Shown here in pieces: positions 27,444 to 38,684 of a stretch of DNA of 64,000 nt. The notes below the pieces were generated by a model. It saw only the letters and a list, made by a program, of their open reading frames with translations. It made no database searches and was not told the origin of the DNA. This stretch comes from Spirochaetia bacterium. Its GTDB lineage: Bacteria; Spirochaetota; Spirochaetia; SZUA-6; Bin103. Positions within the stretch are counted from its first letter, which is position 1. Every line of letters begins with the position of its first letter. The stretch lies in the NCBI GenBank assembly GCA_965208575.1, contig CBDBOV010000002.1, positions 320,001 through 384,000 of the forward strand, read 5' to 3'. The position numbers were made by a program, and so were the translations under genes.

Positions 27444-27857
27444 ATGTTGTCGCTTTCGGCGAAGGCGCGCTATGGGCTGCAGGCGGCGTACGACCTGGCG
27501 CTGCATGCCGGTAATGGGCCGCGGCAGGCGCGCGAGGTGGCGGCCGAGCAGGGCATTCCGCAGCACTTCCTGGAGCAGGTGCTGGTGCAGCTCAAGCGCG
27601 CCCTGCTGGTACGCAGCTATCGCGGCAGCCACGGCGGCTACGTGCTGGCGCGCGACCCGCAGGAGATTTCGGTGCTGGAGGTGCTGACCAGTCTGGACGG
27701 ACCGCTGGAGCTGGACGGGGGGCCGTGGAGCGACGCCGTGCTGGCGGTGCCGTTGCGGCGCGCCGCGGCCGGGGTGACTCGGGCACTGGAGGTGAGCCTG
27801 GCCGACCTGGTGTGGGACAAGCAGCGTTCCGGGCCGCGCCTGACCTATCAGATATGA
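27444..27857 (+). CDS. Rrf2 family transcriptional regulator (CymR-like, no Fe-S cysteines)
   Basis: LSAKARYGL, IPQHFLEQVL..L, VRSYRGSHGGYVLAR. Confidence 0.92.
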   Translation: MLSLSAKARYGLQAAYDLALHAGNGPRQAREVAAEQGIPQHFLEQVLVQLKRALLVRSYRGSHGGYVLARDPQEISVLEVLTSLDGPLELDGGPWSDAVLAVPLRRAAAGVTRALEVSLADLVWDKQRSGPRLTYQI

Positions 27858-28600
27858 CGGACATGACACACACGACGGACAAGGCGGCGGCCGCGGCCGC
27901 GATCGCGGAATTGGCGGCGGCCGCAGAGGGCGGGCCGGAGCTGCTGCTCGGCGCCCTGGTGCGGCGTTATGGCGACCGGGTCACGCTGGCCTCGTCGCTG
28001 GGCGCCGAGGACCAGGTGCTGACCCACATGCTGCTGGCCATCAAGCCGCGGGCGCGCATCTTCGTGCTCGACACCGGGCGCCTGCACCAGGAGACCTACG
28101 ACCTGATGGCGCGCACGATGAGCCGCTACGGCATGCGCTACGAGGTGCTGTTCCCGGACGCCGCGGCGGTGCAGGAGATGGTGAGCGGCGAAGGCCCCAA
28201 CCTGTTCTACGCCAGCGTGGCCGGGCGCACGCGCTGCTGCGAGGTGCGCAAGGTGGAGCCGCTCGGCCGGGCGCTGGCCGGTGCCGACGCCTGGATTACC
28301 GGCCTGCGCCGTGCGCAGAGCCCGGAGCGCGGCGACACGCCGCTGGTGGAGTGGGACGCCGCCCATGCGGCGGTCAAGGCGAACCCGCTGGCGGAGTGGA
28401 GCGACGAGCAGGTGTGGGACTACCTGCGCGCCCACGGGGTGCCCTACAACGTGCTGCATGACCGCGGCTTCCTGAGCATCGGCTGCGCGCCGTGCACGCG
28501 CGCCGTGGAGCCGGGCGAGCCGGCGCGCGCCGGGCGCTGGTGGTGGGAGCAGGGCACCGCCAAGGAGTGCGGCCTGCACCCGGCGGAGGCGGCGCGGTGA
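27854..28600 (+). CDS. cysH: Adenylyl-sulfate (APS) reductase, CysH family, Fe-S type
   Basis: [38 protein letters not shown]. Confidence 0.93.
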
Positions 28601-29478
28601 CCGCGCTCGAGCGCCTGGAGGCGCAGAGCGTATACATCCTGCGCGAGGCGTACCGCGAGTTCCCGCGGCTGTGCATGCTGTGGTCGATCGGCAAGGACAG
28701 CACCGTCCTCCTGTGGCTTACCCGCAAGGCGTTCTTCGGCGAGGTGCCGTTCCCGCTCGTGCACATCGACACGTCGTTCAAGATCCCGGAGATGATCGCC
28801 TACCGCGACCAGTTGGTGCGCGACTGGCGGCTCAACCTGATCTACGGCGAGAACCGCGCCGCGCTCGACGCACGGCACACGTTCCCGGCCGGCGCCATCT
28901 CCCGGATCGCCTGCTGCAAGGCGCTGAAGACCGACGCGCTGGTCAACACCCTGTCGGGCGAGTGGCCGCGCTACCGCTACGACCACGACCTGCAGCGCTA
29001 CGTGCAGGACTCCAACACCGAACCGTACACGGGGGTGATCGTGGGCGCGCGCGCGGACGAGGAGGGCAGCCGCTCCAAGGAACGCTACTTCTCGCCGCGC
29101 GACCACCACAGCGACTGGGACATCGGCGACCAGCCGCCGGAGTTGTGGAACCAGTTCAAGACCGACTTTGCGCCCGGCACCCACGTACGCGTGCATCCGC
29201 TGCTCGACTGGACCGAGCTGAACATCTGGGAGTACATCGAGGCGGAGGAGATACCGGTGGTACCGCTCTACTTCAACCACGGCGACGGCACCCGCTACCG
29301 TTCGCTCGGCTGCTACCCATGCACCACGCCGGTGCGCTCGGACGCCACCTCGGTGGCGGAGATCGTCGACGAGCTGCGCACCGGGCAGTTCGCCCACATC
29401 GCCGAGCGCGCCGGGCGCGAGCAGGACAAGGAGGGCGACGGCACCCTCGAGACCCTGCGCCGCGAGGGCTACATGTAA
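28597..29478 (+). CDS. cysD: Sulfate adenylyltransferase subunit 2
   Basis: [50 protein letters not shown]. Confidence 0.96.
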
Positions 29479-31379
29479 TGGCAGCCGCCACAGCACAAGC
29501 AGCCGCGGCACAGGCAGCCGCAGTGCAAGCGGCGGCCGCGCCGCCGCCCGATCTGCCGACCATGAATGTGGTGGTGGTGGGCCACGTCGATCACGGCAAG
29601 AGCACGGTGGTGGGCCGCCTGCTGCACGACACCGGCGTGCTGCCGCATGGCAAGATCGAACAGGTGCGCAGCAACTGCGAGCGCAGCGGCAAGCCGTTCG
29701 AGTACGCATTCCTGATCGATGCGCTGCAGGACGAGCAGGCGCAGGGCATCACCATCGACGCCGCGCGCGTGTTCTTCCGGTCCGACAAGCGGCGCTACAT
29801 CATCATCGACGCCCCCGGCCACATCGAGTTCCTGAAGAACATGATCTCCGGCGCGGCGCGCGCCGAGGCGGCGATCCTGGTGATCGACGCCAGCGAAGGG
29901 GTGCGGGAGAACTCGCGCCGGCACGGGTTCATGGCCGCCATGCTCGGCATCCGCCAGCTCCTGGTGGTGGTCAACAAGATGGACCTGGTGGGCTACGACG
30001 AGGCCGTGTTCACCGCCATCCGCGAGGAGTACGAGGCGTTCCTGGGCGAAATCCAGGTCGAGCCGCGCGGCTTCGTCCCGGTGAGCGGGCGCCACGGCGA
30101 CAACCTGGTGGCCGGCTCGGAGCGCACGCCGTGGTATGAAGGCGCCGCGCTGCTGGAGCAGATCGACGCGTTCGCGAGCGCCGGCGCGGAGACGGCGCAG
30201 GCGCTGCGGCTGCCGGTGCAGGACGTGTACAAGTTTCCGGTGCGCGGCGACGACGCCCGCATCATCGCCGGCACCGTGGCCACCGGCAGCGTGCGGGTGG
30301 GCGACGCGGTAGAGTTCCTGCCGTCGCGCAAGCGGGCGCGGGTGCGCAGCATCGAGGGCTTCCAGGTGGCGTCGCACGAGCAGGCCGCCGCGGGCATGGC
30401 CACCGGCATCACCCTCACCGACGAACTGTACGTGCGCCCCGGGGAACTGATGTACCGGGTCGGCGAACGGGCGCCGCGGGTCGGCACCACGTTCCGCTGC
30501 AATCTGTTCTGGCTCGGCCGCAACCCGCTGGTGCCCGGCAAGCGGTACCGGCTCAAGCTGGCGACCACGCGGGTCGGCGTGCACGTGAAAGAGATCGTCC
30601 AGGTGCTCGATGCAGCCACCCTGGAGCGCAGCGAATCGGACGCCCACAAGGGCCACGTCGGCCGCCACGAGGTGGCCGAGTGCGTGCTGGAGACGCAGAA
30701 CCCGATCGCCTTCGACCTCGGCCTGGGCGCCGAGTTCGCCGCCACCGGGCGCTTCGTGCTGGTCGACGAGTACGAGATCGCCGGCGGCGGCATCGTTACC
30801 GAGTACGTTTCGGGGCTGAAGGCGTCGCTGCGCGAACACGTCAAGCAGCGCGACTACGCCTGGGTGCGCGGCGCCATTACCGCCGAGCAGCGCATCGAGC
30901 GCTACCGGCAGCGGCCGCGGCTGGTGGTGTTCACCGGGGCGGACGGCGACGTGCTGCACGAGTTGGCGCGCGACCTGGAGGACCGGCTGTTCCGCGCCGG
31001 CGGCAGCGCCTACTACCTGGGCCTGACCAACCTGGCGCGCGGGCTCGATGCCACCATGGACGAGGCGGCCGCGCGCGCGGCGGCCCACACCGACGAGGAC
31101 CGCAGCGAACACCTGCGCCGGCTCGGTGAAGTGGCGCACATTCTCGGCGACGCCGGGCAAATCGTGATCACCACGGTCACCGATCTCGACGCCGCGGAGG
31201 CGGAGATTCTGCGCATTCTCAACGAGCCCAACGACATGCTGGTGATTCGCGTGGGCGCCGACCAGCACGCGGTCAACGCCGACCTGGTGATCGTCCCCGG
31301 TACGCCGCCGGACAAGGCGGTGGCCGCGGCGCACCGCCTGCTGCGCGAGCGCGAGGTGGTGCTCGAGTACTACCTGTGA
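29478..31379 (+). CDS. cysN: Sulfate adenylyltransferase subunit 1 with degenerate C-terminal APS-kinase-like domain
   Basis: [27 protein letters not shown]; the C-terminal CysC-like region lacks a P-loop. Confidence 0.93.
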
Positions 31380-31392
31380 CCGCGCGGCATCG

Positions 31393-33042
31393 TTGATGGC
31401 GGCGTTCGTCAGTCTCATCGGGGCGGGGCCGGGGGATCCGGAGCTGATCACCGTGCGCGGACAGCGCGCGCTGGCCGCCGCCGACGTGATTGTCCACGAC
31501 GACCTGGTGGACCGCCGCCTGCTGATCTCCTGCGCCGGCCGTCCGGTGCACGCGCTCGGCGACCGCCGCGCACCGGCCGCGGAGCGGCAGCGCCGCCTGT
31601 ACAGCGTGCTGGCCGAACACGCGCTCGCCGGGCGGCGGGTGGCGCACCTGAAGGGCGGCGACCCGCTGCTGTACGGCCGCGGCGCCGAGGAGATCCAGTT
31701 CCTGCGCGCCGCCGGCATTCCCTACGAGATCGTGCCGGGAGTCACCGCCGCCGCCGGCGCCGCCGCCTACGCGGAACTGCCGCTGACCCGGCGGCGGCGC
31801 GCCTCCTCGGTGGCGCTGTGCACCGGCCACACCGAGCAGGTCGCGGTGCCGGCGGCGGATACCCTGGTGTACTACATGGCCGCCGCCCGGCTGGCGGAAG
31901 TGGCGCGGCGCGTGCTGGAGCATGGCCGTGCGCCCGACACGCCGGTGGCACTGGTGCGCAACGCCAGCCGCCCCGAGCAGTCGGTCACCACCCTGACCCT
32001 GGCCGAGGTCGCGCGGCTGCCGCCGCCCGACCCGCCGCTGGTGGCGGTGATCGGTCCCGGCGGCGCCCCGCTCACCGGTGTCCCGGACGCCGCCGCGGAG
32101 GTGATTGCCGCCTACCGCCTGGCAACCGGTGAGTTCAGACCGGCTCCCGCTGCCGCCGCGGAGTCGCAAACCGATTGGACGCGGGGGTCAGCGCCCGCGC
32201 CGGCGGCGGACGCGGGAACCGGCGCCCGCCGCGCACCCGACGCCAGCGCGCGCTCGGTCGACGAAGGCATCGCGCAGAACCGTCCCGGCGACGCTCCAGC
32301 GGCTCGCTTCGCCGCGGCAGCCGCCGCGGTGGCAACAACCGATGCGCTACCCGAGCCGTGGTTCGCGGCGGCGCGCAAGGTACTGGTTACCGGAACCACG
32401 GCGGAGCCCTACCGCCACCTTGGCGAGCTGGTGCACACTCCGCTGATCGCGATCGCGGAGCCGGAGGACTGGCAGCCGCTCGACGCCGCGCTCAAGCGCC
32501 TGGCGTCCTACTCGCTGGTCGTGTTTACCAGCCGCTTCGCGGTCGCGGCGCTGCTGGGGCGGCTGCTCGCCCGCGGCGGCGATGCGCGGCGCCTGGCCGG
32601 GGCCCGGCTGGCCGCAATCGGCCGTGGCACGGCCGCGGCACTGCGCAGCCGCGGCCTGGCGGCCGACCTGGTGGCCGCGTCGGAGGACACCGAGGGCCTG
32701 CTGGAGGCGCTGCGCAATGCCGGTGCGATGGCCGGCGAACGCGTGCTGCTGCCGCGCTCCGCGCTGGCCGGCGCCGCGCTGCCGGATGCGCTGCACGCCG
32801 CCGGAGCGCAGGTGACGGCGGTCACCGCCTACCGCAATCTGCCGGTGCCCGATCCGGTGCGGGTGGACCTGGCCGCCCTCGATGCGGCTCTGCTCACCTC
32901 GCCCTCCACGGTTGCGGCATTCCGCAACCTGTACGGCGAGCAGGTGCCGGCGTCCCTCGCGCTGTGGTGCCGCGGCCCGCGCACCCGCGCCGCCGCGCAG
33001 GCGGCGTTCGGCCGCGGCGCCCCCGTCCCGTCCCCGTCCTGA
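31393..33042 (+). CDS. cobA: Uroporphyrinogen-III C-methyltransferase / uroporphyrinogen-III synthase fusion
   Basis: GAGPGDPELIT, LKGGDP..GRG.EE, VPGVTA; HemD part VFTS, AAIG..TA, TSPSTV. Confidence 0.9.
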   Translation: MMAAFVSLIGAGPGDPELITVRGQRALAAADVIVHDDLVDRRLLISCAGRPVHALGDRRAPAAERQRRLYSVLAEHALAGRRVAHLKGGDPLLYGRGAEEIQFLRAAGIPYEIVPGVTAAAGAAAYAELPLTRRRRASSVALCTGHTEQVAVPAADTLVYYMAAARLAEVARRVLEHGRAPDTPVALVRNASRPEQSVTTLTLAEVARLPPPDPPLVAVIGPGGAPLTGVPDAAAEVIAAYRLATGEFRPAPAAAAESQTDWTRGSAPAPAADAGTGARRAPDASARSVDEGIAQNRPGDAPAARFAAAAAAVATTDALPEPWFAAARKVLVTGTTAEPYRHLGELVHTPLIAIAEPEDWQPLDAALKRLASYSLVVFTSRFAVAALLGRLLARGGDARRLAGARLAAIGRGTAAALRSRGLAADLVAASEDTEGLLEALRNAGAMAGERVLLPRSALAGAALPDALHAAGAQVTAVTAYRNLPVPDPVRVDLAALDAALLTSPSTVAAFRNLYGEQVPASLALWCRGPRTRAAAQAAFGRGAPVPSPS

Positions 33043-33111
33043 CCGCCCGAGCCCGCGCAGGCATGGCAGCACGGGCGGCATCCGAGACGCCGGAGGATGA
33101 GTTGCCGGGTG

Positions 33112-34035
33112 TTACCCGCGGGCGCGGAGCTGTTGCAGGAGGGCGTCGTCGCGGCGCCACTTCTTGCGCACCTTGACGCGCAGGTCGAGGTGGATGCGGT
33201 GGCCGAAGATGCGTGCGAGTTCGGCCGTGGCGTCGCGGCGGATGGCAGCGATGCCGGCGCCGCCGCGGCCCACCACGATGCCGACCTGGCTTGGCCGCTC
33301 CACCCAGATGGTGGCGCGAATCCACAGCGCGCCGGGGCGCTGTTCCAGGTCGATCACGTCGACGTACAGGGCGTGCGGCACCTCCGCCGTCACGCGGGCG
33401 AAGGCATGCTCGCGCACGATCTCGGCAACGCGGAAGTCGGGCGTCTGGTCGGTGTACATGTCGTCCGGGTAGAGCAGGTCGCCGACCGGGCTCAGTTCCA
33501 GCAGGCGCGCCACCAGGGCGGGCACGCCGGTGCCGGTGCGTGCCGACACGGAGCGGATCTCGTCGATGCCGGCGCGGCGCAGGCGGGCCTCGCGCTCCTC
33601 GGCGCCGCGCGTTCCCGCCAGGTCCACCTTGTTGCACGCCGCCACCCGCGCGCCGGCGAAGCGACGGGTGGCGGCGAGCACCGCCTCATCCTCGGGGCCG
33701 AACGGCCGGGTGGCGTCGAACAGCAGCAACAGCAGGTCGACTTCGTCGGCGACCGACAGCGCCACGGTCTTCAGCACCAGGTTCAGCTTGCGCTCGCTGA
33801 CGTGCAGGCCGGGGGTGTCGAGGAAGATGAGCTGGCCGGCCGGCAGGGTCGCGATGCCGCGCACACGGCTGCGCGTGGTCTGCGGCACCGGCGACACGAT
33901 GGACACCTTGTGCCCGCAGATGTGGTTGATGAGCGACGACTTGCCGGTCGACGGGCGCCCGACGACGCCGATCGTGCCGACGCGCATCGGGTCCGCGCCT
34001 GCCGGTTCGGCGCGCGCCGGCTCGGCGCCGGTCAC
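33112..34035 (-). CDS. era: GTPase Era
   Basis: GRPSTGKS, PQTTR, DTPG, NKVD, EIVRE, KH domain GIVVGRGG; GTG overlaps the tetR stop (alternative ATG at 33987). Confidence 0.95.
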   Translation of the reverse strand: MTGAEPARAEPAGADPMRVGTIGVVGRPSTGKSSLINHICGHKVSIVSPVPQTTRSRVRGIATLPAGQLIFLDTPGLHVSERKLNLVLKTVALSVADEVDLLLLLFDATRPFGPEDEAVLAATRRFAGARVAACNKVDLAGTRGAEEREARLRRAGIDEIRSVSARTGTGVPALVARLLELSPVGDLLYPDDMYTDQTPDFRVAEIVREHAFARVTAEVPHALYVDVIDLEQRPGALWIRATIWVERPSQVGIVVGRGGAGIAAIRRDATAELARIFGHRIHLDLRVKVRKKWRRDDALLQQLRARG

Positions 34036-34736
34036 TGCGGTTCGTTCCCGGAAGCGGACGGCACCGGCGACCGCCCGCGCGCGCGGGCGCGGCGCCGGTC
34101 CACCCGCTCGGCGCGCTTGCGCAGCGTGAGCCGCCGCCGCAGGCCGCGTTCCACCAGCGTCAGGGTGTCTTCGATCAGGATATCGTTGCCGGGGCTGCCG
34201 AAGTTGGCCAGCAGGGCGGTGTAGAGCGCGATCAGCATCGAGCGCACGTTGTGAAACCGCGCCGTACGGAAGGTGCGCAGGCGGATGCCGGCGAGGAGAA
34301 TCTCGTCGATCATCTCGCCGATGCGCTCGAGTACCCACGCGGAACGCTGCGCGGGGCTCGCGCCGGGGCACACGTAGCGCCGGTCGCCGGTCAGCACGCC
34401 GAGCAGGATCGGGCTGCGCCGCAGGCCGAGCGTAATGAAGCGGTACAGCGCCTTGAGTTGATTCATGGGCGACTCGAAGCGGTCGACCACGCGTCTCGCC
34501 TCGCTGATGGCGCGCCGTTCGATCACCTCCACGATGTGCGCGTAAAACGCCTCCTTGCTTGGGAAGTAGCGGTAGAAGCTGCCGGTCGCCAGACCGGCGT
34601 CGCGGGTAATCTGCTCGACGCTGACTTCGCGGTAGCCCTGCGCCGAGAACAGGCGCTCGCCGATTTCCAGCAGTGCCGCCCGGCGCCGCGCACGGGCCGG
34701 ACGTTCTAGTTCCAATTGCTGTGGGATGGCGTTCAT
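34032..34736 (-). CDS. TetR/AcrR family regulator
   Basis: LFSAQGY..VSVEQI...GLATGSFYRYFPSKE HTH. Confidence 0.92.
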   Translation of the reverse strand: MNAIPQQLELERPARARRRAALLEIGERLFSAQGYREVSVEQITRDAGLATGSFYRYFPSKEAFYAHIVEVIERRAISEARRVVDRFESPMNQLKALYRFITLGLRRSPILLGVLTGDRRYVCPGASPAQRSAWVLERIGEMIDEILLAGIRLRTFRTARFHNVRSMLIALYTALLANFGSPGNDILIEDTLTLVERGLRRRLTLRKRAERVDRRRARARGRSPVPSASGNEPQ

Positions 34737-34746
34737 AGCGAAAAAG

Positions 34747-34769
34747 TGAATATCGTATTCAGATATTCA
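34747..34769. promoter_or_regulatory. Putative TetR operator
   Basis: TGAATA-tcg-TATTCA palindrome nested in TGAATATC-N7-GATATTCA, 10 nt upstream of the tetR start. Confidence 0.65.
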
Positions 34770-34999
34770 GGCGCCCAGTCTAACCGAAACCCGGATTGCA
34801 TACCACCTGCGGCGATTATTTCGCCATCGTAGCACTCTTCGCGCACGCGCGGAATACGCTTCCCGCGCGGCCCCTTACACTGACCGTATTGGCCCTACCC
34901 GCGGTCCACTGCAGGTGCCGGGAACGGCTGGCCGGCACCGTGCCGGCGGTCGCCCCGGAGGCAGAGGCATTCGCCGGTAGTACCATGTGGGAGAGAACC

Positions 35000-36328
35000 A
35001 TGGAGTCCATGCACTATCGGCTGCGCTGCCTGGCGTGTGGGGCATCGTACCCTGAACAGCGCGCCGGGTTCCGTCTGCAGTGCGACTGCGCGGTACCGCC
35101 GCGCGGCCTGCTGCGTGCCGAGTACCGTGAACGGTTCGTACCGGTCAGCGAGAATGGGGTGTTCCGCTACCGCAACTGGCTGCCGATCCGGCGCGGCGCG
35201 CCGTGGAGCGCCGTGCTGCGGCGCCCGGCGCCCGGTCCCGTGGCCTACCGCAGCCGCGAGCTGGCCCGCCGCATCGGGCTCGATCGGTTGGTGGTGCTGT
35301 TCTCGGGCTACTGGCCGGAACGCGGAGCCGGTTGCGAAACCTGCAGCTTCAAGGAGCTGGAAGCGCTTGCGGTGACCGCGCGGCTGCCCGAGGCTGATCG
35401 GCGGCCACTGGTGGTTGCCTCCGCGGGCAACACCGGGCGCGCGTTCCACACCGTCTGCTCGCGCCATGCCGTACCCGCGGTGGTGGTGGTGCCCGAGGCC
35501 GCCCTGCCGGCACTGTGGACCACCGCCCCGGCTGCCGCCGAGACCACGCTGGTAGCGGTAACCGGCGACGCCGACTACGCCGATGCGATACGGGTTGCCG
35601 GCATGATCGCCGCCCTGCCCGGCTTCCTGGCCGAGGGCGGTGCACACAACGTGGCGCGGCGCGACGGCATGGGAACCGCGCTGCTCGCCGGCGTCGAGTG
35701 CGCCGGCGCCCTGCCGCGCCACTACGTGCAGGCGGTCGGCAGCGGCACCGGCGCGATCGCCGCGTGGGAAATGGCGCAGCGCCTGGTGCGGGACGGCCGT
35801 TTCGGCGGCCAGGTACCGCGCATGCACCTGGCGCAGAACCGGCCCTTCACCATCATGGCGGACGCCTGGCAGCGGCGCAGCAGGCAACTGCCGCCGCTCG
35901 ACGAGGCGCAGGCCAAGCGCCGCATCGCCGCCCTGCGCGCCACGGTGCTGAGCAACCGCCAGCCGCCCTACGCGCTCGCCGGCGGCGTGTACGACGCCCT
36001 GTCCGCCAGCGCCGGGGCGATGTACCGCGTCACCAACCGGCAGGCGGAGCACGCCGGTGCCCTGTTCGCGGCGGTCGAGGGCTGCGACATCGACCCCGCG
36101 GCGGCGGTGGCCGTGGCGGCGCTGCAGCAGGCGGTGGCGTGTGGCGCGGTCGGGCGGGACGAGATGGTGTTTCTCAACGTGACCGGCGGCGGCCTCCGGC
36201 GCCTGCACGGCGAGCAGCGCACGCGCCGGCTGGCACCCGACCTCGTGGTCGATCACCGCACCGTCACCGACGCCGACCTGGCGCGGAGGCTCGAAGCGGT
36301 CCGCGCCCCGGTCCGGGAGGTGGCATGA
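35000..36328 (+). CDS. Cysteate synthase (PLP, threonine-synthase-like fold; CapA-like)
   Basis: N-terminal C..C Zn knuckle, LLRAEY, FSGYWPERGA..TCSFKELEA, ASAGNTGRAF, EGG..NVARRDGMGT, YVQAVGSGTG, LSNR.PPY. Confidence 0.85.
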   Translation: MESMHYRLRCLACGASYPEQRAGFRLQCDCAVPPRGLLRAEYRERFVPVSENGVFRYRNWLPIRRGAPWSAVLRRPAPGPVAYRSRELARRIGLDRLVVLFSGYWPERGAGCETCSFKELEALAVTARLPEADRRPLVVASAGNTGRAFHTVCSRHAVPAVVVVPEAALPALWTTAPAAAETTLVAVTGDADYADAIRVAGMIAALPGFLAEGGAHNVARRDGMGTALLAGVECAGALPRHYVQAVGSGTGAIAAWEMAQRLVRDGRFGGQVPRMHLAQNRPFTIMADAWQRRSRQLPPLDEAQAKRRIAALRATVLSNRQPPYALAGGVYDALSASAGAMYRVTNRQAEHAGALFAAVEGCDIDPAAAVAVAALQQAVACGAVGRDEMVFLNVTGGGLRRLHGEQRTRRLAPDLVVDHRTVTDADLARRLEAVRAPVREVA

Positions 36329-37566
36329 GCGACCTGTTCGCCAAGTGCCGCGGCGACGGCGGGTACTTCGGCGTGTACCGGGCGGCCGGCGACAAGTACG
36401 TCGTGCGCCCCATTCTGGACTCCCTGCCCGGCCCGCACATGGAATCGGGCGGGCGCCGGGTGATCATGTGGGGCATCAACAGCTACCTCGGCCTGACCGG
36501 AAACGAACGCATCAAGGCGGCCGCCGAGGCGTCGGTGGCGCGCTACTCCACCTGCACGCCGATGGGGTCGCGCCTGCTCACCGGCAACACGAGCAGGCAC
36601 GAGGCGCTGGAGCGGCGGCTGGCCGAATACTGCGGCAAGCAGGCCTCCGTGCTGTTCAACTACGGCTACCTCGGCGTGATGGGCACGATCTCCGCCCTGA
36701 TCGGCCCCAAGGACGTAGTGATCATCGACAAGCTGTCGCACGCATCGATGATCGACGGCACCATCCTGGCGATGGCGGGGCGCCGCTTCCGGCCGTTCCG
36801 CCACAACGACATGGAGAGTCTCGAGCAGCAGCTTCGCGCCGAGCGCGAGCGCGGCGCCGGCGGCATCCTGATCGTGATCGAGGGCGTGTACGGGATGCGC
36901 GGCGACCTGGCCAACCTGCCCGACATCGCCGCCCTCGCGCGCCGCTACGAGGCGCGCATCTTCATCGACGACGCGCACGGGTTCGGGGTGATGGGCGCCG
37001 GCGGACGCGGCACCGCCGAGCACTTCGGCGTGCAGGACGAGATCGACCTCTACTTCGGCACCTTCGCCAAGGCGTTCGCGGCGATCGGCGGCGTCACCGC
37101 CGGCGACCCGGAGGTGATCGAGTACATTCGATTCAACGCGCGTACCAACGTGTTCGCCAAGGCGTTGCCGATGGTCTACGTGGACGTGCTCGACGCCACG
37201 CTCGACGAGATCCTCGCGCATCCGGAGTATCGTGAACGGATGTGGCACAACGCGCGCGCCCTGCAGCGCGGCCTGCTCGAGTTGGGCTACAGCATCGGCG
37301 ATACCCAGTCGCCGGTGACGCCGGTGTACATTCCCTCCGGCCCGGAGACCGGTCGCGCGATCATGGTGATGCTGCGCGAGGAGTACGGCGTATTCCTGTC
37401 CGGCGTCACCTACCCGGTGGTGCCGCGCGGCATCAACCTGTTCCGCATGATCCCGACGGCGCTGCACACCGACCAGGACGTGGCCGACACCCTGGCCGCG
37501 TTCGCCGAGATTCGCGACCGCCTGAACCTGGACCTCGCCAGTCTGAAGAGCCTCAGCCTGGCCTGA
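36325..37566 (+). CDS. Alpha-oxoamine synthase family acyltransferase (cysteate-C-fatty acyltransferase/CapB-like)
   Basis: WGINSYLGL, PMGSRLLTG, SHASMIDG, EGVYGMRGD, DDAHGFG, DLYFGTFAK; ATGA overlap with cysteate synthase. Confidence 0.8.
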   Translation: MSDLFAKCRGDGGYFGVYRAAGDKYVVRPILDSLPGPHMESGGRRVIMWGINSYLGLTGNERIKAAAEASVARYSTCTPMGSRLLTGNTSRHEALERRLAEYCGKQASVLFNYGYLGVMGTISALIGPKDVVIIDKLSHASMIDGTILAMAGRRFRPFRHNDMESLEQQLRAERERGAGGILIVIEGVYGMRGDLANLPDIAALARRYEARIFIDDAHGFGVMGAGGRGTAEHFGVQDEIDLYFGTFAKAFAAIGGVTAGDPEVIEYIRFNARTNVFAKALPMVYVDVLDATLDEILAHPEYRERMWHNARALQRGLLELGYSIGDTQSPVTPVYIPSGPETGRAIMVMLREEYGVFLSGVTYPVVPRGINLFRMIPTALHTDQDVADTLAAFAEIRDRLNLDLASLKSLSLA

Positions 37567-37571
37567 CCGCG

Positions 37572-38684
37572 ATGGCCGCCACCTCGCGCGGCCGCGGGTT
37601 GTGCGGCCGCCGGCTCCGCGTCCCGGTGCGCGCGGTCGCGCCCGTCTCGCTTTCGCCGACCGGCGGCGGCGACTCACCGCGCCGCCTCGGGCCGTGCCCG
37701 GCGGCGGTCACGGCCGCGGTTGCGGTCGTGCTTGCCCTGCTGGCGCTGAACGGCTGCGGCGAGGCGTTGCGGCAGCATGAATTCGCGGCCATGTCCACGG
37801 TGGTGCGCGCTTCGGTGTACGGGCCGGGCCCCGACTGGCAGGCGTTCGAGCGCGCCGCCCACGCGTACGCCGCGCGCTACGACCACCGCGACCCGGCGAG
37901 CCCGGTGGCGCGGCTCAACCGCGACGGCGCGGCCGCGCTCGACCCGCTGACCGCCGCCACCCTGAGCCGCGCCGTGCAGTTGGCGGAGGCCACCGGCGGC
38001 GCGTTCGATCCCACCATGCTGCCGGTCACCCGGTTGTGGAACTTCGACGACGGCGGCGCGCTGCCCGACGCCGCCGCCCTGCGCGCCGCGCTGCAACGGG
38101 TCGACTACCGCCGCCTGCGGGTGACCGGCGGCACGGCGACGCTGGACGGAGCGGAACTGGACCTGGGCGCCATCGGCAAGGGCGCCGTGGTGGATCACCT
38201 GGCCGACTGGCTCACCGAACGCGGCTACCGGCGGTTTCTGCTGGAGGCGGGCGGCGACGTGCTGGTGTCGGACCTGAAGCCGGACGGCACGCAATGGCGG
38301 ATCTGGATCCGGCACCCGCGCTCCGCGGACGCCCCGCTGGCGATCGCCACCATAGGCGCGGCGGGGCAGCGGGTGGCGCTGGCCACGTCGGGAGACTACG
38401 AGCGCTTCATGGAGCGCGACGGCGTGCGTTACCATCACATCCTCAATCCCGCGACCGGGCACCCGGACAGCGACGCGGTCTCGGCGTCGGTGATCGCCGG
38501 CAGCGCAACCGAGGCGGACGCGCTCGCGACGGCGCTGTTCGTCCTGGGCAGCGGCGGCGGGGAGCTGTTGCGCGGCGGCTACGCGGGGATCGAGGGGGTG
38601 ATCATGTACCGCGCGGGCGAGGAGCTTGCGGCGCTGACCAGCGAGCGGTTTCCGGCGCTGCATGGCCGCCTCAACGTGAATTGA
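37572..38684 (+). CDS. apbE: FAD:protein FMN transferase lipoprotein
   Basis: Lipobox LNGC, AMST, GAFDPT, LDLGAIGKG, ATSGDYER, YHHILNPATG, ADALATA; start uncertain. Confidence 0.92.
   Translation: MAATSRGRGLCGRRLRVPVRAVAPVSLSPTGGGDSPRRLGPCPAAVTAAVAVVLALLALNGCGEALRQHEFAAMSTVVRASVYGPGPDWQAFERAAHAYAARYDHRDPASPVARLNRDGAAALDPLTAATLSRAVQLAEATGGAFDPTMLPVTRLWNFDDGGALPDAAALRAALQRVDYRRLRVTGGTATLDGAELDLGAIGKGAVVDHLADWLTERGYRRFLLEAGGDVLVSDLKPDGTQWRIWIRHPRSADAPLAIATIGAAGQRVALATSGDYERFMERDGVRYHHILNPATGHPDSDAVSASVIAGSATEADALATALFVLGSGGGELLRGGYAGIEGVIMYRAGEELAALTSERFPALHGRLNVN

Follow-up and report, generated by a model that had tools for sequence, protein, structure and literature searches.

A cysteate synthase and cysteate fatty-acyltransferase gene pair in an uncultured spirochaete suggests sulfonolipid synthesis outside Bacteroidota

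Whether sulfonolipids, which are sulfur-containing, bioactive analogues of sphingolipids, are made outside Bacteroidota is the question raised by a gene pair in the genome of an uncultured spirochaete. The pair lies at 35000–37566 of a window of 64 000 nucleotides (the whole stretch of DNA that was analysed; positions 320,001 to 384,000 of contig CBDBOV010000002.1, GenBank assembly GCA_965208575.1). Its first gene was assigned to a cysteate synthase and its second to a cysteate fatty-acyltransferase (CFAT), and it is likely that these are the first two committed enzymes of a sulfonolipid pathway in which a capnine-type base would be made. In a review, the synthesis of sulfonolipids is described as apparently limited to Bacteroidota, and the choanoflagellate rosette-inducing factor, pro-inflammatory agents and lipids needed for gliding motility are counted among them (PMC10191378). 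A survey of the human microbiome reports loose homologues in many phyla and, under a stricter filter, 9632 of 9633 genomes belonging to Bacteroidota (PMC11525784).

Gene content was assigned from Pfam and NCBIfam scans (Table 1). The product of 35000–36328 passed the NCBIfam equivalog cut-off of TIGR03844, the archaeal-type cysteate synthase model, while threonine synthase models gave no more than 75.7 bits, the cut-off of the best of them being 303. Its best solved relative was PDB entry 9k3c (‘Cysteate synthase’; 347.8 bits, residues 6–434), which it matched along its full length; solved threonine synthases reached at most 45.8 bits. The stretches CSFKE, ASAGNT and GSGTGA aligned with 9k3c, and the lysine of SFK is taken by us to be the one that binds pyridoxal 5′-phosphate (PLP). 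Among 14 control genomes the TIGR03844 cut-off was passed by Methanosarcina acetivorans alone. In Methanosarcina the archaeal-type enzyme serves coenzyme M synthesis, whereas the window gene is coupled to a CFAT gene in a bacterial, lipid-type setting. Sulfopyruvate decarboxylase (TIGR03845) was not found in the genome (95% complete), so a coenzyme-M-like use of cysteate is unsupported. These matches identify the protein as a cysteate synthase, predicted to form cysteate from phosphoserine and sulfite, and uphold its reading in an earlier note on this DNA, which a threonine synthase would have refuted. A point of naming concerns CapA, mentioned in the same note as the cysteate synthase of Bacteroidetes: according to a 2023 review, Alistipes and Odoribacter have a cysteate synthase homologous to the archaeal one and not to Capnocytophaga CapA (PMC10191378). 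The window enzyme is of this archaeal/Alistipes type and ‘CapA’ is therefore the wrong name for it.

The product of 36325–37566 passed no NCBIfam equivalog cut-off, the top model being one for serine palmitoyltransferase (SPT; 320 bits, cut-off 640). Its closest solved relatives were the two structurally characterized cysteate acyl-ACP/CoA transferases of Bacteroidota, CapB (PDB entry 28eh, Capnocytophaga ochracea; 377.8 bits) and SulA (PDB entry 7u7h, Alistipes finegoldii; 374.8 bits), to which it aligned at full length (residues 1–402); the next match, SPT (PDB entry 3a2b; 267.8 bits), was about 110 bits lower. Fold and length are those of SulA and CapB, and the protein also has the PMG insertion together with the motifs N-Y/F-G-Y, HGFG and F-x-T-F-A-K. 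Bacterial SPTs (NF047600; PDB entries 3a2b and 2jg2) share the chemistry, in which an amino acid and a fatty-acyl thioester undergo a decarboxylative Claisen condensation.

Trees were computed from the CFAT-like proteins of relatives, 80 named loci, a library at 50% identity and paralogues, with E. coli BioF and E. coli Kbl as references. In a first tree (91 rows, quick search, LG+G4) the window protein fell in a 67-row CFAT-type clade with a support of 98 in the SH-like approximate likelihood-ratio test (SH-aLRT). For a more careful tree (64 rows, maximum likelihood with IQ-TREE, LG+C20+F+G4 by posterior mean site frequencies) 27 rows, most of them CFAT-like, were left out as near-duplicates and a further five (P0131, P0136, L062, L154 and the L064 paralogue) as long or partial, and six Bacteroidales SPTs that pass NF047600, taken from a sample of 41 genomes of the order, were added as references. 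The CFAT clade holding the window protein was supported at 100/100 with a stem of 0.58, and the six verified SPTs (100/100), Kbl (100/100) and BioF all lay outside it. Within the clade a Bacteroidota/Balneolota part (100/100) was separated from the part that contains the window protein (99/96). The former is anchored to biochemistry by an Alistipes sp. protein (L125) that matches SulA 7u7h with 814 bits over 401 residues; the latter holds Spirochaetota, a WOR-3 metagenome-assembled genome (MAG), an unclassified MAG, a MAG labelled Legionellaceae and fusions of a fatty-acyl-AMP ligase (FAAL) and an acyl carrier protein (ACP) with a CFAT-type domain. No protein of five CFAT-bearing Bacteroidota genomes passed the SPT cut-off, and none of ten library proteins scanned against NCBIfam was above any equivalog cut-off.

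The diagnostic residues agree with this placement. Lys249, which corresponds to CapB Lys250 and SulA Lys251, is the catalytic PLP lysine and was invariant in 64/64 rows. Eight positions (P79, M80, N112, Y115, E186, A248, A278 and K279) were identical in all 24 proteins of the window subclade and all 16 CFATs of the Bacteroidota type, and all eight differed in the six SPTs, which form a separate clade, lack the P79 insertion and have Phe at Y115, Ser at A248 and Ala (6/6) at K279. K279 matches SulA Lys281 and CapB Lys280. In the report on SulA the former, contributed by the opposite protomer, is singled out as the only clear difference between its active site and that of Spt, which has alanine there, and the K281A variant was inactive (PMC9304779). 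For CapB, Tyr115 and Lys250 are reported as essential, with less than 10% activity for mutants of Phe113, Gly114, His139 and Lys280, and Tyr115 and Lys280 rank with the residues that respond most strongly to alanine scanning (PMC13692747). The first shell around cysteate in CapB (compared as Asn52, Phe113-Gly114-Tyr115, His139, Cys141, His219 and Thr247) has its counterparts in N52, Y113-G114-Y115, H139, H218 and T246 of the window protein, position 113 being Tyr or Phe among CFATs. The sole listed residue that differs is S141, SPT-like where CapB has Cys141. In the window subclade this position is Ser in 15 and Cys in nine of 24 proteins, and some activity was kept by CapB C141A (same source, PMC13692747).

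The reading in which the acyltransferase is instead an enzyme of the SPT, Kbl or BioF kind, using serine, glycine or alanine, while the synthase serves a separate purpose and no sulfonated base is formed, can draw on S141 and on the SPT model as the best, though subthreshold, profile match. It is nevertheless very improbable given a position that branches of 100/100 separate from the clades of verified SPTs, Kbl and BioF, the eight CFAT-specific residues with K279 among them, and the gene order described below. It is also opposed by the only other α-oxoamine synthase of the genome, which looks like BioF. This second enzyme, on contig C4, was the sole paralogue of the window CFAT at E ≤ 1e-10 and scored 466 bits on an SPT model (cut-off 640). 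Its gene forms a row (contig C4:30785–35600; L027:6785–11601) together with neighbours that are FabA-like, AMP-binding and BioD-like (AAA_26). A sphingolipid cluster was considered for this row and rejected in view of these neighbours, which make a BioF more likely; the row is probably a biotin cluster in which pimelate is activated in an unusual way. No protein of the genome grouped with the verified SPTs. With its only paralogue probably a BioF, the window CFAT is the only long-chain-base-type synthase found in the genome. The protein is thus classed, by tree and residues, as a cysteate fatty-acyltransferase of the CFAT/SulA/CapB type; the phylogeny with CapB/SulA, SPT, BioF and Kbl that the earlier note had called for came out in favour of its assignment.

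The two genes are coupled by an ATGA stop/start overlap at 36325–36328, as had been noted before, with a GGAGG-like stretch shortly 5′ of it, and the ATG of the synthase gene at 35000 is preceded by GGGAGAG. Of 41 genomes of relatives (the genome itself included), 11 passed the TIGR03844 cut-off. A CFAT gene was found directly downstream of the synthase gene in 12/12 synthase loci of relatives, one of them a fragment, and a tetR homologue adjoined the pair in all ten of the larger loci, so that the conserved unit is tetR–synthase–CFAT; judged by gene order it is a conserved module across several spirochaete families. In a broader sample of 401 Spirochaetota genomes the cut-off was passed by 24, with an uneven distribution among families (17/17 in one; 0/50, 0/75 and 0/38 in three large ones), and a CFAT gene was adjacent in just four of the 24 synthase loci, which were taken with 1.5 kb flanks. 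In the unlinked cases searched as whole genomes, from two other spirochaete families, a CFAT with 57–59% identity was found elsewhere in 5/5. An adjacent synthase–CFAT pair of the same subclade is also present in the WOR-3 MAG (L067). Eight of the 80 named loci had a synthase of the TIGR03844 type no more than 5 kb from the CFAT gene; the other type of synthase, to be expected in most of the Bacteroidota among these loci, was not searched for.

An inverted repeat at 34747–34769 is a candidate operator for the TetR-family regulator. It is an AT-rich box within a window of about 70% G+C, and its inner motif occurs once in the 64 kb. When intergenic regions were aligned, the window and five loci of the same genus were seen to share the box with minor differences; a search of the intergenic regions of relatives for the exact pattern of the AT-rich palindrome gave no match.

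The surroundings of other members of the subclade were also inspected. Three proteins (P0123, P0125 and P0126; 1049–1127 amino acids) combine FAAL-like, ACP and CFAT-type domains in single chains; P0123 is 58% identical to the window CFAT, and its 90% cluster includes a member with the name Rhodothermaceae. In the MAG labelled Legionellaceae (L070:4983–9148) an AMP-binding gene comes after a CFAT-like gene and is itself followed by a three-part fusion gene, in whose product an AMP-binding C-terminal part is joined to an ACP and to ComA, the (2R)-phospho-3-sulfolactate synthase that uses sulfite. The locus has the look of one of sulfonolipid type in which the sulfonate is supplied in another way and, with the FAAL–ACP–CFAT fusions, would support fatty-acyl plus sulfonate chemistry for the subclade. 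A two-domain protein of glyoxalase/VOC fold (about 353 amino acids) is encoded a few kilobases from the CFAT gene in 11 loci of Spirochaetota, WOR-3, Chlorobiota and Bacteroidota (L022:6018–7061, L063, L064, L067:6296–7357, L071, L073:6364–7425, L087, L102, L103, L104 and L137). In the genome of the window itself it has weak matches only (26% identity over 163 residues).

The analysis shows to which families the two enzymes belong, that they carry diagnostic residues, and that they co-occur with their genes linked in a conserved way. The route proposed on this basis is a prediction as regards its substrates and acyl donor, its later steps and its lipid product. Sulfite would replace the phosphate of O-phospho-L-serine on the synthase to give L-cysteate. 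CFAT would hold cysteate as an external aldimine at K249 and, in a condensation that releases CO2, join it to a long-chain acyl thioester, for which acyl-ACP is the likeliest candidate, to give a sulfonated long-chain base of the 3-ketocapnine type. A ketoreductase encoded elsewhere would then yield the capnine-type base, from which an N-acyltransferase could make a ceramide-like sulfonolipid, and the divergent TetR regulator would probably control the pair. Sulfite would be drawn from the ordinary adenosine 5′-phosphosulfate (APS) reductase route, encoded in this genus by an operon 2 kb upstream, and would be shared with a NirA-type reductase and CysK for cysteine.

Several points weigh against this route. 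The window CFAT belongs to a subclade that is sister to the characterized Bacteroidota enzymes, with about 45% identity to the Alistipes orthologue, and differs from CapB in S141. No gene for a short-chain dehydrogenase/reductase (SDR) was conserved beside the pair in the loci of relatives that were compared; a genome-wide search for CapC/KCR was not made. Contigs from two metatranscriptome libraries, short and 90–99% alike, cover 27/30 and 12/30 bins of the pair; they were discounted as evidence of expression, since DNA can be carried over into such libraries and the contigs may come from relatives. The sulfate operon, considered below, neither looks dedicated to the pair nor keeps its place beside it in other families. 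That no reductase gene is linked to the pair is not counted against the pathway, because the ketocapnine reductases active in C. gleum and A. finegoldii are described as several scattered SDRs that are not clustered with the cfat or synthase genes (PMC11211663).

The same gap in the neighbourhood bears on an alternative in which the pair makes and condenses cysteate but the product is a shorter-chain or tailored sulfonated amino-ketone (for instance a signal that is secreted, the precursor of an osmolyte or a building block for a natural product) rather than a membrane sulfonolipid. Neither reductase nor N-acyltransferase genes are linked to the pair, control by TetR and the patchy occurrence (24 of 401 Spirochaetota genomes) would fit an accessory metabolite, and the glyoxalase-fold protein near CFAT in 11 loci of several phyla, together with the ApbE gene that follows the pair, counts in the same direction. 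We regard this alternative as improbable, though less so than the serine-, glycine- or alanine-using enzyme rejected above: FAAL/ACP fusions occur in the same subclade, the acyl- and cysteate-site residues match those of long-chain CFATs, and the sulfonolipid makers among Bacteroidota have unlinked reductases too (PMC11211663). The capnine-type base is kept as the likely product.

The source of the sulfite was considered next to the genes of sulfate assimilation upstream. CysH passed the models for thioredoxin-dependent APS reductase and sulfite would therefore be made from APS. The C-terminal domain of CysN (30870–31379) resembles APS kinase, with just 28.5 bits to PF01583 over profile positions 3–82 of 152. 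In the translated C-terminus no P-loop could be made out, for which reason this kinase-like tail is probably degenerate and non-catalytic; this would fit the APS-reductase route. The Rrf2-family regulator (27444–27857) was below the cut-offs of the CymR and IscR models. The cobA–hemD fusion, as a supplier of siroheme precursor, points to sulfite reduction. It had been claimed that sulfite reductase and cysteine synthase genes are missing from the operon, and this is correct for the operon itself, which encodes neither. A genome-wide search, suggested at the time for the reductase, nevertheless found on contig C1 a single siroheme protein of the NirA family that has two NIR_SIR domains, and on contig C5 a CysK that passes its cut-off. 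With cobA–hemD in the operon and these two enzymes elsewhere, the operon looks like an ordinary assimilatory one whose sulfite would have two sinks, and not like a dedicated supply. CysD/CysN, the thioredoxin-type APS reductase and cobA–hemD are shared with known assimilatory sulfate reduction via APS reductase, as are the NirA-family reductase and CysK encoded elsewhere; the lead position of Rrf2, the CysN tail without a visible P-loop and cysteate synthase as the second sulfite sink set the present system apart.

Gene order gave a mixed answer on whether sulfite is channelled to the pair, as had been proposed. The operon adjoins the pair in four of five same-genus loci and in none of five loci from other families, two of the latter being short; what is kept across spirochaete families is the tetR–synthase–CFAT unit. 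The gap between the end of cobA–hemD and the start of the synthase gene, put at about 2 kb in the earlier note and measured as ∼1.96 kb, is occupied by era and tetR on the minus strand, and with two opposite-strand genes between them operon and pair form two distinct transcription units. It is accordingly nearly an even question, with the balance slightly on the negative side, whether the closeness of the two is a genus-level accident of gene order, the operon serving cysteine only and the synthase tapping a common sulfite pool. The adjacency counts, the intervening genes and the presence of cobA–hemD, NirA and CysK all fit such an accident. Sulfate-activation genes have, however, been joined to the pair independently: in another spirochaete (L072) cysD, cysN, the synthase gene and the CFAT gene stand in a single row and overlap, in L064 a weak cysH-like gene is divergent from the synthase gene, and in a Chlorobiota MAG (L102) cysH–cysD–cysN are divergent from the CFAT gene. 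The link is read as recurrent but loose and functional, without a dedicated channel. An accident of gene order would oppose only the channelling and is compatible with synthesis of the sulfonolipid by the pair from shared sulfite.

The genome (G000; 6.5 Mb in six contigs) is a MAG-like assembly of an uncultured organism. Among database proteins the nearest one (98% identity) carries the name ‘Spirochaetaceae bacterium’ and the nearest loci among species-representative genomes are those of spirochaete MAGs, in agreement with the lineage that had been presumed from the DNA. A CFAT homologue of Salinispira pacifica is 65% identical to the window protein; a cultured strain of this species is obtainable. 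Public sequencing runs were compared with positions 34700–37600 of the window, and coverage of the gene pair was counted over 30 bins. Sponge metagenome runs from two studies besides the possible source set contained pieces at least 99% alike that covered 30/30 and 28/30 bins. As near-identical DNA sits in sponge metagenomes, the organism is likely to be sponge-associated, and for the same reason the sulfonolipid may have a role in an animal–microbe association.

Two marker genes of lipid A synthesis were checked: in the 95% complete genome LpxC was not found and LpxA was below its cut-off, and the organism may be without lipid A. On these grounds a speculative lead is that the capnine-type sulfonolipid stands in for lipid A as a main anionic lipid of the outer membrane, and is perhaps also a host signal, for which the Bacteroidota sulfonolipids that set off multicellular development in choanoflagellates are a precedent. 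The CFAT subclade of Spirochaetota, WOR-3 and the FAAL–ACP fusion proteins would then be a second large, unstudied reservoir of producers. We hold this to be unlikely, although less so than the accessory metabolite discussed above.

The chemistry and both enzyme families were already known and the lineage is new. In full-text literature searches, which did not cover supplements, no paper on a sulfonolipid pathway or lipid in any spirochaete was found, nor were lipidomics found for any spirochaete that carries the genes. Several spirochaete families, and a WOR-3 MAG as well, have both committed enzymes, conserved and linked, which would extend the likely producers to another phylum; Spirochaetota is probably the second phylum of bacteria in which sulfonolipids are made. 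If so, they would be less dependable as biomarkers of Bacteroidota in lipidomics.

All genes named in the earlier note were found by the scans at the positions given there. The coordinates are collected in Table 1. The candidate starts of cysH (ATG at 27854), cysD (GTG at 28597) and cysN each overlap the stop of the preceding gene; they were picked by position, and for cysH also by the length in relatives, and are not proven.

Table 1. Features of the sulfate operon, the cysteate synthase–CFAT pair and their surroundings (window coordinates; scores in bits, with model cut-offs in brackets)
Feature	Position	Strand	Match or remark
Rrf2-family regulator, first gene of operon	27444–27857	+	PF02082 93; TIGR00738 90.1 (73.3)
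cysH, thioredoxin-dependent APS reductase	∼27854–28600	+	TIGR02055 253.9 (235.3); NF002537 267.4 (154)
cysD, sulfate adenylyltransferase small subunit	∼28597–29478	+	NF003587 339.5 (195)
cysN, sulfate adenylyltransferase large subunit	∼29478–31379	+	TIGR02034 340.8 (336.1)
cobA–hemD fusion (uroporphyrinogen-III C-methyltransferase + uroporphyrinogen-III synthase)	∼31396–33042	+	PF00590 167.8; PF02602 141.2; NF004790 219.9 (198)
era	33112–33987	−	
tetR-family regulator, divergent from synthase gene	34032–34736	−	PF00440 51.3
AT-rich inverted repeat TGAATATC-N7-GATATTCA, candidate TetR operator	34747–34769	.	just upstream of tetR
Cysteate synthase, archaeal/Alistipes type	35000–36328	+	TIGR03844 481.2 (324.9)
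Cysteate fatty-acyltransferase (CFAT/SulA/CapB-type α-oxoamine synthase)	36325–37566	+	PF00155 160.5
ApbE-family flavin transferase, candidate lipoprotein	37572–38684	+	PF02424 233.4

We know of no role of ApbE in sulfonolipid synthesis. The apbE start lies five bases past the stop of the CFAT gene, and the product has a lipoprotein-like N-terminus (LNGC). The gene keeps its position after CFAT in the same-genus loci and in one locus of another family (L023). In the window it is followed on the plus strand by clpP and purC.

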